A stretch of 64,000 bases of DNA from Candidatus Bathyarchaeota archaeon (lineage in GTDB: Archaea > Thermoproteota > Bathyarchaeia > Bathyarchaeales > DTEX01). The position numbers were made by a program, and so were the translations under genes. The notes below the pieces were generated by a model that searched no databases, was not told where the DNA came from, and saw only the letters and a list, made by a program, of their open reading frames with translations. The DNA lies in NCBI GenBank assembly GCA_018396435.1, contig JAGTRG010000001.1, forward strand, positions 9,659-73,658, written 5' to 3'. This document shows positions 5,338 to 38,811 of the stretch, one piece after another (position 1 is the stretch's first letter; each line of letters begins with the position of its first letter).

Positions 5338-7743
5338 ATGCAAATGTCAAGCAAGAAGGGAAAGTTCGTATTATGGTTTGAGGAGATAGGCATCGAAGAT
5401 GTGCCAGTCGTCGGGGGAAAAAGCGCAAGCCTAGGTGAAATGATTAGGAAAGTAGGCGTTCCAGTGCCATACGGCTTCGCAACAACAGCTGAAGCATACA
5501 GATACTACATAAGGGCAAATAAGCTAGATGAGAAAATAGCGGAGATCCTCAAGGAGCTGAAGGACCCGAACGACACGCAAACCCTGCAGAAGGTAGGCGC
5601 AAGGATCAGGGAACTAATAGCCTCCGCCGATATGCCTAAAGACCTGGAGGAGGAGATCGTTAAAGCATATGAGGATCTGGCTGAAAGAATAGGCGATGAG
5701 AACCCGTTTGTTGCAGTGCGCAGCTCAGCAACAGCCGAGGATCTGCCGGATGCAAGCTTCGCCGGCCAGCAGGAAACATACCTCAATGTTCACACGGCTG
5801 AGGAGGTTGTTGAAAAAATAAAGCACTGTTACGCGAGCCTCTTCACAGATAGGGCTATATTCTACAGGGTCCAGAAGGGATTCGACCATATGGCTGTGGC
5901 CCTAAGCAGCGTAGTCCAGCTAATGGTTTACAGCAAAGCCAGCGGTGTCATATTCACCCTAGACGTTGCAACAGGGGACAGAAGCGTTGTTCTGATAGAG
6001 GCGGGCTACGGGCTGGGCGAATTCATAGTTCAGGGAACAATAACACCGGATGAATACTACGTCAGGAAATCCGACCTGGAAATAGTGAAGAAGAACATTT
6101 CCAGGAAGACGGTTCAGCTGGTCAGGCTTCCAACAGGCGGAACAGAACGCAGGGATGTCCCACCGGTCCTTCAGGAAAAGCAGGTGCTTACAGACGAGCA
6201 GATTAAGGAGCTGGCCAAATACGCCATAATGATTGAGCAGCATTACGGAAAGCCCATGGACATAGAGTGGGCACTAGATGAAAGAACAAACAAACTGTTC
6301 ATACTTCAAGCCAGGCCGGAAACAGTCTGGGCTATCAAGAAAGCCGAGGTTGTTGAGGAGAAGCCAGCTGTAACAAAGGAGCGGAAGGTTCTCATCCAGG
6401 GTCTGCCAGCATCACCAGGCGTGGCTGTTGGAAAAGTGCACATTATACCGACCGTTGATAGAATCAACGAGTTCCAGAAGGGCGAAATACTCGTCACAGA
6501 GATGACGGCGCCAGACTGGGTTCCAGCAATGCGTAAGGCAGCGGCCATCATAACAAACTCGGGTGGAATGACATGCCACGCAGCCATAGTCTCCAGGGAG
6601 CTGGGGATCCCATGCATTGTTGGAACAGCCTCTAGGGGTGCGCCGGCAACAGAAGCCCTCGAAGACGGCACTATGGTGACTGTGGACGCTAAGCTAGGCG
6701 TTGTCTACGAGGGAATACTTGAAGAATTCGCTGAGAAAGCCGAGAAGGCTGAAGCTGCGCCAGCAGCCGTCACGTTCGCTGAACCATACATAATAACCGG
6801 GACAAAAATATATGTTAATCTGGGCGAACCTGAGATCGCCGATAAGGTTTCAGCCCTGCCAGCCGACGGCGTCGGACTGCTAAGGCAGGAGTTCGTCTGG
6901 TCAAGCGAGATAGGTGAGCACCCGCTATACATGATTGAAGTCGGGAGAGCCGAGGAATTCGTCAATAAGCTAGCTGAGGCGTTCAGAAAGATCTGCGCAG
7001 CGTTCTATCCCAGACCGGTTGTCATGCGCTTCAGCGACTTCAAATCTTCAGAGTACAGGGAGCTAAAGGGCGGGGAGAAATATGAGCCCGTTGAACCGTC
7101 GGCCCTAATGGGCTGGAGGGGAGCGTCAAGATACTACGACCCGAAGTATATTGAGGCCTTCAGGCTTGAGGTTAAAGCCGTTAAGAAGGTTCGTGAAGAA
7201 TACGGGTTGAAGAACCTTTGGGTTATGATACCCTTCTGCAGACGAGTCGATGAGATGGAGAGGATCGTTGAAATCTTGGAGGAGGAGGGCTTAAAGAGGG
7301 GTCCGGACTTCAAGGTTTGGCTTATGGCTGAGATACCGAGCAACTGCCTCCTAGCCGACAAATTCAACAAGTATGTTGACGGATACAGCATTGGAAGCAA
7401 CGACCTAACGATGACGATCTTGGGATGCGACCGGGACAATGAGACAGTGGCGCACCTGTTCGATGAGAGAGACCTAGCGGTTAAACGTGCAATCAGATTG
7501 CTCATCAAGCTGGCCCATAGAGACGGCAAAACGGTCAGCATATGCGGCCAGGCTCCAAGCGTCTACCCAGAGTTCACAGAGTTCCTTGTTAGAAGCGGAA
7601 TAGACAGCGTCTCAGTGAACCCGGATGTGGTTGCTCAGACGAGAAAACTCGTAGCTTCAATTGAGCAGCGCATAATGCTTGAAAAACTAACAGGCATGGG
7701 ATTGCGTGAAGATCCAGATCTGGAGATCCCGCTTGACAAGTAG
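5338..7743 (+). CDS. ppsA: Phosphoenolpyruvate synthase
   Basis: 801 aa. VPVVGGKSASLGEM, the swivel-His segment GGMTCHAAIVSRELGIPCIVG, and a C-terminal PEP-utilizing barrel. Confidence 0.92.
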   Translation: MQMSSKKGKFVLWFEEIGIEDVPVVGGKSASLGEMIRKVGVPVPYGFATTAEAYRYYIRANKLDEKIAEILKELKDPNDTQTLQKVGARIRELIASADMPKDLEEEIVKAYEDLAERIGDENPFVAVRSSATAEDLPDASFAGQQETYLNVHTAEEVVEKIKHCYASLFTDRAIFYRVQKGFDHMAVALSSVVQLMVYSKASGVIFTLDVATGDRSVVLIEAGYGLGEFIVQGTITPDEYYVRKSDLEIVKKNISRKTVQLVRLPTGGTERRDVPPVLQEKQVLTDEQIKELAKYAIMIEQHYGKPMDIEWALDERTNKLFILQARPETVWAIKKAEVVEEKPAVTKERKVLIQGLPASPGVAVGKVHIIPTVDRINEFQKGEILVTEMTAPDWVPAMRKAAAIITNSGGMTCHAAIVSRELGIPCIVGTASRGAPATEALEDGTMVTVDAKLGVVYEGILEEFAEKAEKAEAAPAAVTFAEPYIITGTKIYVNLGEPEIADKVSALPADGVGLLRQEFVWSSEIGEHPLYMIEVGRAEEFVNKLAEAFRKICAAFYPRPVVMRFSDFKSSEYRELKGGEKYEPVEPSALMGWRGASRYYDPKYIEAFRLEVKAVKKVREEYGLKNLWVMIPFCRRVDEMERIVEILEEEGLKRGPDFKVWLMAEIPSNCLLADKFNKYVDGYSIGSNDLTMTILGCDRDNETVAHLFDERDLAVKRAIRLLIKLAHRDGKTVSICGQAPSVYPEFTEFLVRSGIDSVSVNPDVVAQTRKLVASIEQRIMLEKLTGMGLREDPDLEIPLDK

Positions 7744-36578: not shown

Positions 36579-37133
36579 ATGCATGAAGATATGGGGGAAT
36601 TGCCAAAGCGTATCTCAAGCATTCTTAGAAGCGATGAGCGGGTTCTATTGTGGAGGAAGCCTGTTTTTGAATCGTTTATACTGCACCTTGAGCATATGTG
36701 GGGCTTCGTCCTTGTAGGTCTCTTTATTTTTGTGGGCGCTATGGTCAGCATATCCATTGTTCATATACCTATACCCTACGGCTTTCTTGCAATATTCGCA
36801 CTCCAGATCTTTTTCGGACTTTTAATGCTCTTTGGTCCAGTCGCTCGGAATGCCATAGCATACAATAACACATTCTACGTAATAACTGACAGAAGAATTC
36901 TAATTCAAACCGGGGCGATAGGCATTGACACAAGAATAATCGACTTTGACAAAATGCAGGAGATCTACGTGACAGTGGACCTAGTTGACAGGATCTTTGG
37001 AACCGGAAGCATAAAAATATCAACAGCCGCCGGCTGGCCCGAGCATGCCTATATGCCAACGCTTGTTGCGTTACGTAACCCCTATCAAGTTCATGAGGTT
37101 CTCCAAAACGCCATGGAGAAGACTAGGCATTAG
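36579..37133 (+). CDS. Membrane protein with bacterial-type PH domain (YdbS/DUF304-like)
   Basis: Two TM helices followed by FYVITDRRILIQTGAIGIDTRIIDFDKMQEIYV. Confidence 0.6.
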   Translation: MHEDMGELPKRISSILRSDERVLLWRKPVFESFILHLEHMWGFVLVGLFIFVGAMVSISIVHIPIPYGFLAIFALQIFFGLLMLFGPVARNAIAYNNTFYVITDRRILIQTGAIGIDTRIIDFDKMQEIYVTVDLVDRIFGTGSIKISTAAGWPEHAYMPTLVALRNPYQVHEVLQNAMEKTRH

Positions 37134-37199
37134 AGCAAAGCTACATTTTGGGAGTAAAGTTTATCTTAGATTTCCATCATCTGTTATTTCTGGCGATGA

Positions 37200-37440
37200 T
37201 CCGAGGAGCCTTAATCCCGCCGGAACCCTCTAGCCTGTCAGGCTGGGCCCGCAGAGACGGACTCAACCAATATGGATGATAAATCATCCGTATATGAGGG
37301 AGAGTTTACCCAGTTGCGGGACACGGCGGGCGTGGGCGCAAAACTCCACGTATGAGAGAGCCCGTCGGAGGGGAGCGAAGCCCGCTCGTCTGTGAGGTTG
37401 GGTGTTAGTTACGTGGAACACAAGGCGCCCACGATATAAA
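37200..37440 (+). ncRNA. Unassigned structured RNA candidate with two helical domains
   Basis: No credible ORF, and visibly more GC-rich than the flanks. Nested helices: 37216-22/37324-30, 37232-36/37240-44, 37270-79/37284-93 (one U-G pair, possible only on the + strand), 37331-39/37425-33, 37345-52/37410-17. A TATA-like AAGTTTATCT lies at 37157-66 and T-runs follow 37440. Confidence 0.55.
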
Positions 37441-37493
37441 TCTTTAAAAAATTTTGGAAACCAAAAATTTTATCTAGCTTGCCTTAACATTTA

Positions 37494-37856
37494 GTGGATG
37501 CATGCTATAGGGGTGGATATTTGAAGCCCATAATTAGATATGAAAGAGAGATAGAGTCAGGCGGAAGCATGTCCTTTCCAGTGAAGATTCTTCTGTCTAA
37601 AAGCGATACATCGACAGCCAGCGTCAGGCTCAGCATGCTTGATGAAAAAATGAAGATCGATTTGCATGCGCATGATGAATGCGACCAGATGGAGTACTGC
37701 ATTAGGGGCAAAGCCGTAATGTTCATTGAGGGCTTAGGTGAAAAAGAAATACATGAAGGAACATTCACCTATGTTCCTAAAGGCGTAAAACACAGCATAG
37801 TGAAAGTCGTCGAACCATTCGCTGTCCTAACGGTTTTTGTGCCACCGCTCTTCTAA
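37494..37856 (+). CDS. Cupin-domain protein
   Basis: HAHDECDQMEYCIRGKA...YVPKGVKHSI. The ATG at 37569 is an alternative start. Confidence 0.65.
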   Translation: MDACYRGGYLKPIIRYEREIESGGSMSFPVKILLSKSDTSTASVRLSMLDEKMKIDLHAHDECDQMEYCIRGKAVMFIEGLGEKEIHEGTFTYVPKGVKHSIVKVVEPFAVLTVFVPPLF

Positions 37857-38427: not shown

Positions 38428-38811
38428 TTAGCCTCCCTTAATCTTTTGAATCCTAGTTATGATTTCCCTAATGAGGTCGGCAGCCTCGCCGGCCTCAATT
38501 ATGCATACCGACGCTGCTGGAACCTCTATTCCGACAGCTGAACCCAGCTTAGTTTTGCTTGGCACATACGCATAAGGTATTTTACGTTCATCGCAGAGCA
38601 ATGGGAGATGCGCAACAACCTCAGGTGGGTCAACATCCTCAGCTATTACAACCAGTTTAGCTATTCCTCTCTCCACAGCCTTCGTTGTCTCATTTGTTCC
38701 TTTACGTATTTTGCCGGTTCTAGTAGCTATCTGCACAGCTTCGTAAGTGGCGTTCACAACCTCACTCGGTACCTCAAATTTAACATAGAACGGTTTCGGC
38801 ATATTCATCAC
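38428..38811 (-). CDS. rpl7ae: 50S ribosomal protein L7Ae (K-turn binding)
   Basis: [40 protein letters not shown]. Confidence 0.93.

Follow-up and report, generated by a model that had tools for sequence, protein, structure and literature searches.

We found that the GC-rich spacer downstream of pheT in a 64,000-nt stretch of Bathyarchaeota DNA (the window) probably specifies a Bathyarchaeia guide sRNA of the double box H/ACA type, ~245 nt long and with its own promoter; we put the probability of this reading at about 0.8. The RNA was assigned to the archaeal box H/ACA class because of its two ACA boxes, its K-turns, their fixed distances and its predicted complementarity to rRNA. It is a fresh example, itself absent from Rfam, of a known kind of RNA, the H/ACA guide.

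A conserved non-coding RNA downstream of pheT

The + strand of positions 37190-37440 is GC-rich, lacks an ORF and folds strongly into an RNA behind its own BRE/TATA promoter. The GC content was 59.5% at 37200-37399 and 39-48% in the flanks, the ORFs overlapping the RNA region were of 36-45 aa only, and the length differences among homologues were not multiples of three, in agreement with an earlier note on this DNA that had described a GC-rich spacer without a credible ORF. The + strand of the RNA region folded at -108.7 kcal/mol (z = -5.0), a value equalled by 0 of 200 shuffles, and the - strand gave z = -2.25. Both the G-U pairs and the fold z-score favored the + strand. The RNA most likely extends from ~37190 to 37440-37455. 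The limits of the transcript are marked by two elements:

37154..37167, + strand: BRE/TATA-type archaeal promoter (GUAAAGUUUAUCUU), conserved in all homologues
37434..37457, + strand: 3' tail (AUAUAAA) and T-runs, probable termination zone; 3' end approximate

The TATA-like element and the 3' T-runs had both been pointed out previously. We found that the former is conserved and that its TTAT core keeps a constant distance of 29-31 nt from the downstream first helix (measured to the initial G of the 5' hairpin) wherever both could be located; it probably drives transcription of the RNA. The T-runs follow the last helix, after which GAUA is kept in most homologues before T-rich sequence begins. 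Together, the fold z-score, the G-U pairs and the conserved promoter support the earlier proposal of a structured, + strand RNA that is likely to be transcribed independently.

Conservation in relatives with compensatory substitutions, which the earlier note had named among its tests, was observed. Sixteen other Bathyarchaeia lineages, with PheT identity down to 59%, carry a homologue immediately 3' of pheT. Motifs were counted in 17 sequences (the window and the 16 lineages), and covariation statistics were taken from 15. Across those 15, the curated structure had 95.6% of cells paired and compensatory change in 26 of 63 pairs; 0 of 500 shuffles reached its level, and slid controls were 40-46% paired. 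Judged by this comparison of sequences, the spacer is a real, conserved ~245-nt non-coding RNA of Bathyarchaeia. A second nhmmer match, upstream in the lineage L156, was rejected as weak, with an unconvincing fold (z = -0.8).

The complementary segments listed in the earlier note are all present in the DNA at the positions it gave, and six helices among them survived comparison with 14-16 homologues. CCCGCCG/CGGCGGG, CCCGCA/UGCGGG, CGUGGGCGC/GCGCCCACG, UCCACGUA/UACGUGGA and the hairpin at 37270-93 are real helices, and the AGCCU...AGGCU hairpin is real in that it lengthens a short CCC/GGG hairpin in a lineage-specific way. The pseudoknot that had been suggested was not supported: its crossing helix, CCCUC/GAGGG, was 79% paired without covariation, the two-helix set tested did no better than shuffles, and the CCC pairs locally with GGG at 37245-47 instead. 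The proposed innermost helix of the second domain, AGAGAGC/GCUC(G)UCU, showed no compensatory change; it can form in 91% of cells only through the conservation of its two strands. We also discarded a long-range ACCCAG/CUGGGU pairing between the domains, because the lineage L018 changes CUGGGU to CUGAGA along with its local partner.

A gene for a ribosomal protein lies near the RNA:

38428..38811, - strand: ribosomal protein L7Ae gene (Pfam PF01248, E = 1.8e-30); context, outside the RNA

In archaea, L7Ae binds the K-turns of H/ACA and C/D RNPs. The window showed no signature motif of Cbf5.

Two probable H/ACA units within closing helices

The RNA contains two 76-nt units:

37248..37323, + strand: H/ACA unit 1, 76 nt, fold z = -6.0
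37248-53/37315-20, + strand: unit-1 lower stem CCCGCA/UGCGGG, compensatory change in 4 of 6 pairs
37254-61, + strand: unit-1 pocket 5' strand GAGACGGA
37305-14, + strand: unit-1 pocket 3' strand UUUACCCAGU
37262-68/37298-304, + strand: unit-1 upper stem, 7 positions, two of them non-Watson-Crick
37269-70 and 37293-97, + strand: unit-1 K-turn, AA (37269-70) opposite bulge UAU (37293-95) and GA (37296-97)
37271-92, + strand: unit-1 capping hairpin, compensatory change in 8 of 9 pairs
37321-23, + strand: unit-1 ACA box, present in 17 of 17 sequences
37345..37420, + strand: H/ACA unit 2, 76 nt, fold z = -4.05
37345-52/37410-17, + strand: unit-2 lower stem UCCACGUA/UACGUGGA, 8 bp, 3 pairs with compensatory change
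37353-60, + strand: unit-2 pocket 5' strand UGAGAGAG
37403-09, + strand: unit-2 pocket 3' strand UGUUAGU
37361-67/37396-402, + strand: unit-2 upper stem, 7 positions, 3 pairs with compensatory change
37368-69 and 37391-95, + strand: unit-2 K-turn, GA (37368-69) opposite bulge UGU (37391-93) and GA (37394-95)
37370-90, + strand: unit-2 capping hairpin
37418-20, + strand: unit-2 ACA box, 17 of 17 sequences, shifted in L018 along with a longer stem

Both units share one layout: a lower stem, an internal loop, a 7-position upper stem, a K-turn made of an NNU bulge and tandem G:A, a capping hairpin and an ACA. All stems covary, and an ACA lies directly 3' of each lower stem. In all 17 sequences the upper-stem base and the ACA were 16 nt apart in unit 1 and 15 nt apart in unit 2. 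In unit 2 the K-turn was GA/GA throughout (17/17), and its 3-nt bulge varied (UGU, AAU, AGU, CGU) while always ending in U. In unit 1 the 5' strand of the K-turn was GA in 12 of the 17 and AA in the other 5, the window included, and the 3' strand was GA in 16, with GG in the lineage L031.

These dimensions were compared with published rules. Counted from the upper-stem base, the distal G:A is 9 positions away in either unit, in line with the rule of 9-10 positions (Li and Ye 2006, quoted in PMC7075261). The descriptor of Muller 2008 (PMC2377435) has a lower stem of at least 7 bp and pocket strands of 5-11 nt. The pocket strands (8/7 nt in unit 2, 8/10 nt in unit 1) fall within it, and the 6-bp lower stem of unit 1 is one pair short. 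According to the same source, the Pyrococcus H/ACA sRNAs (Pab21, Pab35, Pab40, Pab91, Pab105, Pab160 and Pf9) carry one to three motifs per RNA and share with the present RNA the lower stem, the 5-11-nt pocket strands, the upper stem, the K-turn or K-loop and the ANA 3' of the lower stem. The present RNA differs in the short lower stem and the non-canonical upper-stem pairs of unit 1, and it has no sequence similarity to any Rfam model, Pyrococcus-derived families included.

The two units are accompanied by further helices:

37192..37210, + strand: 5' K-turn-like hairpin, stem GGC/GCC, 3-nt bulge GAU, 6-nt loop
37216..37222, + strand: P1 closing helix, 5' strand CCCGCCG, pairs with 37324-37330
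37226..37247, + strand: P2 hairpin, CCC/GGG base, here extended by AGCCU-GUC-AGGCU
37324..37330, + strand: P1 closing helix, 3' strand CGGCGGG, directly 3' of the unit-1 ACA
37331..37339, + strand: outer closing helix of unit 2, 5' strand CGUGGGCGC, pairs with 37425-37433
37425..37433, + strand: outer closing helix of unit 2, 3' strand GCGCCCACG

P1 was paired in 99% of cells, with a single compensatory change (G-C to U-A) and a single G-U, and the outer helix of unit 2 in 98.5%, with compensatory change in 3 of 9 pairs. P2 is variable in length and has lineage-specific extensions, for example CCCAC/GUGGG in L029 and CCUCAU/AUGAGG in L031. Since unit 1 is clamped by P1 and unit 2 by its outer stem, each ACA is set in a junction or an internal loop; the segment ACACAAG, previously read as part of an A-rich internal loop, carries the ACA box of unit 2. 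ACA boxes inside closed junctions were not found in the H/ACA RNA descriptions compared, nor are closing helices round each unit noted for the Pyrococcus sRNAs in the parts of PMC2377435 consulted. This setting could interfere with Cbf5 binding.

In the 5' hairpin, GA at 37198-99 forms G:A/A:G with GA at 37206-07. The pattern stem-NNU-GA-N3-6-GA-stem was kept in 16 of the 17 sequences, and the stem covaries (GGC/GCC, AGC/GCU, GGU/GCC). The layout (stem, NNU bulge, tandem G:A, short distal element) is that of the U4 snRNA 5' stem-loop and of the terminal box C/D K-turn. Compared with those L7Ae/15.5K-binding K-turns, the non-canonical stem is here cut to a 3-6-nt loop and lacks a guide or D-box context. 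The hairpin may bind L7Ae. Pab21 likewise has a C/D-type K-turn motif (PMC2377435), to which the extra hairpin is comparable.

A search of the whole window against Rfam 15 gave 0 matches at gathering thresholds, and a search of 37050-37600 at E<=10 with permissive filters gave only an irrelevant 12.9-bit viral element outside the RNA. With nothing in these scans, SRP RNA, RNase P RNA and the known sRNA families are excluded; the RNA belongs to no Rfam family, archaeal SRP RNA, RNase P RNA A/M/T and Pyrococcus H/ACA included. The earlier statement that it fits no known family thus stands for Rfam families but not for the class, since its anatomy is that of an archaeal box H/ACA RNA. In the literature and Rfam 15 we found no description of an H/ACA guide RNA of Bathyarchaeia, an abundant uncultured archaeal group, and the locus provides a well-supported 17-lineage seed alignment for annotating the guide in MAGs.

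Predicted rRNA targets and comparison with Haloferax sR-h45

In an unbiased scan of a Bathyarchaeota locus with 16S and 23S (1-2400), the best site for the unit-2 pocket was UAAC-UCUGA-CUCUCUCA in helix 69, its UCUGA being U1915-A1919 by ungapped alignment to E. coli; 9 of 300 guide shuffles scored as well anywhere. The helix 69 sequence came from one other Bathyarchaeota contig (L148), not from the organism of the window. The match appeared only with the Bathyarchaeota (TACK/eukaryote-type) helix 69: E. coli rRNA alone was not decisive as a target set, and the E. coli-type helix 69 had no unit-2 match.

The unit-1 pocket is complementary to 23S CUGGGU (2579-84) and CCGUC (2590-94), and its best site was CUGGGU-UUAGA-CCGUC at U2585 (6 of 300 shuffles were as good). 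The 2579-2594 segment was taken from E. coli and one eukaryotic LSU rRNA, not from a Bathyarchaeota 23S, and we take it to fit archaeal 23S in general. Only 1 of 120 Bathyarchaeota 16S loci also carried a 23S, and that 23S lacks its 3' 500 nt, so the 2585 region is absent from the Bathyarchaeota comparison. A search of viral contigs for archaeal rRNA gave only two eukaryotic LSU fragments, and no printed archaeal 23S sequence of the 2585 region was found in the literature.

The predicted duplexes are of 4+8 bp at helix 69 and 6-7+5 bp at 2579-2594, with shuffle p values of ~0.02-0.03 each. Both leave 5 target nucleotides unpaired, as against the canonical UN (or the documented UNN and UNUN). 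The 3'-guide duplex of unit 2 has 4 bp only, and Muller et al. describe the 3' guide as the more important one (PMC2377435). The same source places the target U 14-15 nt from the ANA box; guide nucleotide 15 faces U1915 in unit 2 and U2586 in unit 1, and nucleotide 14 faces U2585. Guide positions with a predicted partner (ACCCAG, ACGG, GAGAGAG, GUUA) either do not vary or change to G-U, while pocket nucleotides predicted to be unpaired (UUU 37305-07 and nucleotide 37314) vary between lineages. Both best sites are known archaeal pseudouridine sites. We predict that unit 1 targets the peptidyl-transferase-centre UUU (U2586 and/or U2585) and that unit 2 targets the helix 69 loop (U1915, possibly U1917; E. 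coli numbering). If so, Bathyarchaeia would pseudouridylate helix 69 and the UUU by RNA guidance. A helix 71 site for unit 1, GGGUAAG-UU-CCG, offers a canonical UN but was rejected: the U would be 17 nt from the ACA, and the pairing needs the variable guide nucleotides 37305-07 and leaves the invariant AG unexplained.

The same two targets are known from Haloferax sR-h45, a ~210-nt RNA with two H/ACA hairpins, of which the 5' one guides modification of the third U of the conserved 23S UUU (psi2605) and the 3' one that of helix-69 psi1940/1942 (E. coli 1915/1917), with UNUN unpaired (PMC7075261). By prediction, the Bathyarchaeia RNA has both targets in the same 5'-to-3' order, with its 5' unit directed to UUU 2584-2586 and its 3' unit to U1915/U1917. 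This likeness is a functional one, drawn from the published description of sR-h45. In both RNAs the K-turn carries a 3-nt bulge, with U as its last base, on the 3' strand ahead of GA, and both have substantial extra structure. In sR-h45, however, that structure lies between hairpins parted by a 56-nt linker with an H box (AUAGCUA), whereas the Bathyarchaeia RNA has neither a long linker nor AUAGCUA; its units abut, each enclosed by its own closing helix, and it has the additional 5' K-turn hairpin. The SL1 guide of sR-h45 extends its pairing over the first two U's, and UN stays open, whereas here pairing ends at the first U, with 5 nt unpaired. The phyla also differ, sR-h45 being found in Halobacteria.

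The same target pair, in the same order on one two-hairpin RNA as in haloarchaea, bears on the age of composite guides; its presence in Halobacteria and Bathyarchaeia might go back to an ancient double guide already present before the major archaeal lineages parted. Within the TACK/Thermoproteota lineage, to which Bathyarchaeia also belong, Pyrobaculum and Sulfolobus islandicus have atypical H/ACA-like RNAs, among them sR148, which guides the helix-69 psi1917 equivalent (PMC11077068). They are K-turn-containing Cbf5 guides, as the candidate described here is predicted to be, but the Bathyarchaeia RNA has two classic lower stems, invariant ACA boxes and additional helices.

Proposed mode of action and alternative readings

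The RNA folds into three parts, the 5' K-turn hairpin and the two 76-nt units. By analogy with characterised archaeal H/ACA RNPs, L7Ae would bind the K-turns, and Cbf5-Nop10-Gar1 would bind each lower stem with its ACA. Both pocket strands would then pair with 23S rRNA, so that a U ~15 nt from the ACA enters the active site of Cbf5. Unusual in the RNA are its closing helices, its 5' K-turn hairpin and its five unpaired target nucleotides. Measured against the rules drawn from Pyrococcus and Haloferax, the closed-junction ACA boxes, the added K-turn and the open 5-nt target loops are differences that can be put to the test.

It is possible, but doubtful, that the closing helices and the third K-turn are functional rather than decorative and hold a clamped double H/ACA RNP together. 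Two Cbf5 modules would then be held in fixed geometry on substrates with a 5-nt open loop; such a particle could grip two regions of a single nascent 23S together, helix 69 and the peptidyl-transferase loop, and might modify at least two uridines per pocket or serve as an assembly chaperone. A rival reading is modelled on snR30/U17, where the pocket is used for rRNA processing and not for pseudouridylation: an H/ACA-type RNP with Cbf5 and L7Ae would tether or chaperone helix 69 and the peptidyl-transferase loop in 50S assembly. The open loops in both pockets are atypical for catalysis, the closing helices join the units rigidly in one RNA, and the pocket sequences are invariant over wide divergence, all of which would suit a tether. 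However, the sites ~15 nt from each ACA are uridines that the analogous Haloferax guide pseudouridylates, UNUN and UNN are catalytically competent in other archaea (PMC2377435 and PMC7075261), and nothing specifically requires a non-catalytic role, which we consider unlikely.

The double H/ACA guide reading was also weighed against readings outside the class. A structured RNA of a new, non-H/ACA kind, for example an L7Ae-binding regulatory or sponge RNA, in which the ACA boxes and rRNA complementarity are coincidental, would agree with the lack of an Rfam match, with complementarity statistics that are modest alone and with three K-turn-like motifs at a distance of ~1 kb from the window's L7Ae gene. 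In several lineages, however, the RNA is kept without an L7Ae gene close by, and coincidence would have to account both for two invariant ACA boxes at rule-conforming K-turn distances in two separate units and for best sites that are the sR-h45 targets in order; the chance of such an RNA seems small. A cis element is more improbable still, whether as the 3' UTR of pheT or of the gene for the PH-domain protein, or as a riboswitch or 5' leader belonging to the downstream cupin gene. The RNA is always just downstream of pheT in the lineages compared, but its promoter is conserved at a fixed distance, its anatomy is that of a trans-acting guide, the downstream gene differs by lineage (cupin, GH106, ATPase, S28e or hypothetical), and the PH-domain gene upstream is present in some lineages and absent from others. 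A divergent SRP RNA or RNase P RNA, which the earlier note had already thought a poor fit, would roughly match in size, and the string GUCGGAGGGGAGCGAAG had been noted as faintly resembling SRP helix 8. This reading is effectively refuted by the Rfam null result, which covers both RNAs at E<=10, and by the covariation-supported structure. The CR-I/CR-V strings are absent, and the helix-8-like string turned out to be the non-bulged strand of a K-turn together with its covarying capping stem.

A structured RNA between the PH-domain and cupin genes

The spacer in question is flanked by a bPH_2-domain gene (36579-37133) and a small cupin gene, with genes for L24e, S28e and L7Ae downstream on the opposite strand. 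The earlier note had described this spacer as GC-rich, without a credible ORF, and folded by complementary segments into a real but unannotated RNA. All the listed segments were found in place, and the reading as a real RNA without annotation was right. The G+C content was 59.5% at 37200-37399 versus 39-48% in both flanks, and the overlapping ORFs were of 36-45 codons only. The + strand folded with -108.7 kcal/mol (z = -5.0; none of 200 shuffles was equally good), whereas z was -2.25 for the - strand. The RNA is single-copy within the window.

We found no relevant Rfam 15 match at 37050-37600 even at E ≤ 10. Therefore, no curated family accounts for the RNA, including SRP RNA and RNase P RNA, neither of which had fitted cleanly in the earlier note, and the faint resemblance to SRP helix 8 suggested there was not borne out. 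At gathering thresholds, the whole 64-kb window gave zero matches, not even a tRNA. That no family could be assigned holds for curated Rfam families but not for the class: the RNA is, with a probability of about 0.8, a box H/ACA guide sRNA of the known class with some unusual architecture. No H/ACA RNA is described for Bathyarchaeia in Rfam or the searchable literature.

The PH-domain protein and PheT of the window are 99-100% identical to proteins of one Bathyarchaeia MAG. Homologous loci were retrieved via the PH protein (L001-L009), via PheT homologues of 59-72% identity (L018, L027, L028, L029, L031, L154 and L156) and by scanning a genome collection with a 20-base pattern, which returned 11 Bathyarchaeia contigs and 3 chance bacterial matches. 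The RNA was kept in every examined relative having an intergenic gap 3' of pheT. The PH gene between pheT and the RNA is present in some lineages and absent in others, and the downstream gene differs between lineages. In L153 (1849-2493), from a Bathyarchaeia MAG whose PheT is 62% identical to that of the window, pheT overlaps a PAC2-family gene, leaving no gap and no RNA copy at this position; the linkage to pheT is therefore not universal.

The TATA-like element noticed earlier proved to be a conserved BRE/TATA-like element (GUAAAGUUUAU and variants), with its TTAT core 29-31 nt upstream of the first helix in every homologue in which both could be located. Such a position is consistent with an archaeal promoter of the RNA's own and with transcription starting near 37190. 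In L003 (1487-2065), a partial copy, comprising the promoter and about 100 nt from the 5' end of the RNA, is followed by a run of N and then a complete copy; the arrangement points to an error of scaffolding or assembly more than to a duplication.

Two hairpin units and their fit to box H/ACA rules

The RNA is built of the following features.

37192-37210, + strand: 5' K-turn-like hairpin (stem GGC/GCC, bulge GAU, GA...GA, short closing loop)
37216-37222 with 37324-37330, + strand: closing helix P1
Between the 5' strand of P1 and unit 1, + strand: hairpin P2
37248-37323, + strand: unit 1, 76 nt including ACA; lower stem CCCGCA/UGCGGG; internal loop strands GAGACGGA and UUUACCCAGU
37331-37339 with 37425-37433, + strand: outer helix of 9 bp enclosing unit 2
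37345-37420, + strand: unit 2, 76 nt including ACA; lower stem UCCACGUA/UACGUGGA; internal loop strands UGAGAGAG and UGUUAGU
3' of the outer helix of unit 2, + strand: short tail and T-runs

The two units share a plan of lower stem, internal loop, 7-position upper stem, tandem G:A pairs, capping hairpin and ACA. In each K-turn, the tandem G:A pairs are accompanied by a 3-nt bulge on the 3' strand whose last base is U (UAU-GA in unit 1, UGU-GA in unit 2). ACA directly follows the lower stem of both units in all 17 sequences. The base of the upper stem is 15 nt (unit 2) or 16 nt (unit 1) from ACA, constant in the 17 sequences, and 9 positions from the distal G:A in both units. The GA/GA of unit 2 never changes, unlike its bulge (UGU, AAU, AGU, CGU). 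The layout of the 5' hairpin is kept in 16 of 17 sequences, and its stem covaries.

According to Muller et al. 2008 (PMC2377435), the loop between stems H1 (at least 7 bp) and H2 has strands measuring 5-11 nt, a K-turn or K-loop is present, ANA is directly 3' of H1, and the target U is 14-15 nt from ANA. Majumder et al. 2020 (PMC7075261) place the distal G:A 9-10 positions from the base of P2, and a three-base K-turn loop, ending in U, before the GA of the 3' strand. Unit 2 conforms to all the rules so stated. Unit 1 departs in three points: the lower stem is limited to 6 bp, two positions of the upper stem are non-Watson-Crick, and some lineages have an imperfect K-turn (the 5' strand reads AA in place of GA in 5 of 17 sequences, the window included, and L031 has GG).

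The comparative alignment proposed in the earlier note did reveal compensatory substitutions. RNAalifold on 11 sequences gave 17 pairs with such changes. In a curated structure derived from the alignment and counted on 15 distinct sequences, 95.6% of 932 cells were paired and both sides changed in 26 of 63 pairs. None of 500 column shuffles reached any of five measures of this structure, and sliding the 3' partners by 1-3 columns lowered pairing to 40-46%. Compensatory change occurred in all helices apart from P1, which is nearly invariant, and the unit-2 K-turn capping stem; in the hairpin at 37271-37292 it affected 8 of 9 pairs.

Two helices of the earlier note did not survive this analysis. 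The crossing CCCUC/GAGGG pairing, read as a possible pseudoknot, was 79% paired, and the tested two-helix set scored no better than shuffles. CCC 37226-37228 pairs locally with GGG 37245-37247 in a hairpin extended differently in other lineages (CCCAC/GUGGG, CCUCAU/AUGAGG). The inner domain-2 helix AGAGAGC/GCUC(G)UCU had zero compensatory change. Its AGAGAGC (37355-37361, the 5' guide strand of unit 2) can pair with GCUC-G-UCU (37384-37391, the 3' strand of the unit-2 capping stem) in 91% of alignment cells; this could be an alternative fold masking the guide before L7Ae binding, or no more than a consequence of conservation in two G/A-rich strings.

Both units measure exactly 76 nt, and GA-GGG(G)AG strings surround the K-turn of each, which makes tandem duplication a possible origin. 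In L156 (3226-3325), the interval from pheT to the RNA contains a weak second nhmmer match (E = 0.004) to the K-turn portion of unit 2, preceded by a AAAAAUUUAUC element and ending in ACAUACA. Since its folding z of -0.8 is no better than shuffles, an extra H/ACA gene is not convincing.

Predicted 23S rRNA targets

Scanning E. coli rRNA with the pockets was not decisive, although ACCCAG of the unit-1 pocket is perfectly complementary to 23S CUGGGU 2579-2584, adjoining U2585. In the two-hairpin H/ACA RNA sR-h45 of Haloferax, the 5' hairpin is the guide for psi2605, which is the last U of the UUU beside CUGGGU, and the 3' hairpin acts on helix 69 at psi1940/1942, corresponding to 1915/1917 of E. 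coli (PMC7075261). This pair of targets predicts helix 69 for unit 2. The E. coli-type helix 69 gave no match to the unit-2 pocket. Bathyarchaeota rRNA was then sought in metagenomes by a 16S primer sequence specific to the group, yielding 120 loci. One of these, L148, carries 23S positions ~1-2400 and was the sole Bathyarchaeota source for helix 69, from another organism than that of the window.

Helix 69 of L148, GGGAG-UAACUCUGA-CUCUC-UCAAGG, aligned without gaps to E. coli 1899-1970. An unbiased scan of the L148 16S and 23S placed the best unit-2 site at UAAC, then U1915 C U1917 G A, then CUCUCUCA. There the 5' guide forms 8 bp and the 3' guide just 4 bp; of 300 shuffled guides, only 9 reached this score anywhere. 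L026, a eukaryotic LSU 3' fragment, stood in for the 23S 3' end that L148 lacks; with it included, the best unit-1 site was (U)CUGGGU, then U2585 U2586 A G A, then CCGUC, with 6-7 plus 5 bp, equalled by 6 of 300 shuffles. With AACGUC, as in E. coli, the duplex loses one pair; CCGUC is the archaeal form of this 23S segment, presumably in Bathyarchaeia too.

These statistics are modest singly (p about 0.02-0.03 each), and the weight of the matches comes mainly from the coincidence with sR-h45, which has the same two predicted targets in the same order of hairpins. Counted from ACA, guide nucleotide 15 lies opposite U1915 and U2586, and nucleotide 14 opposite U2585; five target nucleotides are unpaired in each predicted duplex. 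The pocket strings (A/G)CCCAG, ACGG, GAGAGAG and GUUAGU are invariant or change to wobble pairs only, while nucleotides predicted unpaired (UUU 37305-37307 and 37314) vary. This pattern fits the predicted duplexes and disfavours an alternative helix-71 site for unit 1. We hold the individual target assignments with somewhat lower confidence than the H/ACA identity.

Proposed action and rRNA observations

The RNA is conserved and covarying, contains two units of H/ACA form, and has pockets whose best matches are two 23S sites. By analogy with characterised archaeal H/ACA RNPs, L7Ae, whose gene is in the window, would bind the K-turns, and Cbf5-Nop10-Gar1 would bind each lower stem and ACA. The unit-1 pocket would present U2586 and/or U2585 for isomerisation, and the unit-2 pocket would present U1915 and perhaps U1917 in addition, by analogy with the UNUN mode of sR-h45. 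This scheme does not explain hairpin P2, the K-turn hairpin at the 5' end, the five-nucleotide target gaps or the two closing helices, which place the ACA of unit 1 in a three-way junction and that of unit 2 in an internal loop.

In the reverse complement of L148 (~5705-5776), helix 69 has stem GGGAG/CUCUC and loop UAACUCUGA, compared with a stem of GGCCG/CGGUC and loop UAACUAUAA in E. coli; the L148 3' strand and the bases after it resemble the TACK/eukaryote type. Recognisable 23S occurred in only 1 of the 120 loci with Bathyarchaeota 16S (L033-L152), many of them 5-14 kb long, which suggests frequent separation of the 16S from the 23S gene in Bathyarchaeota, or poor assembly of their operons.
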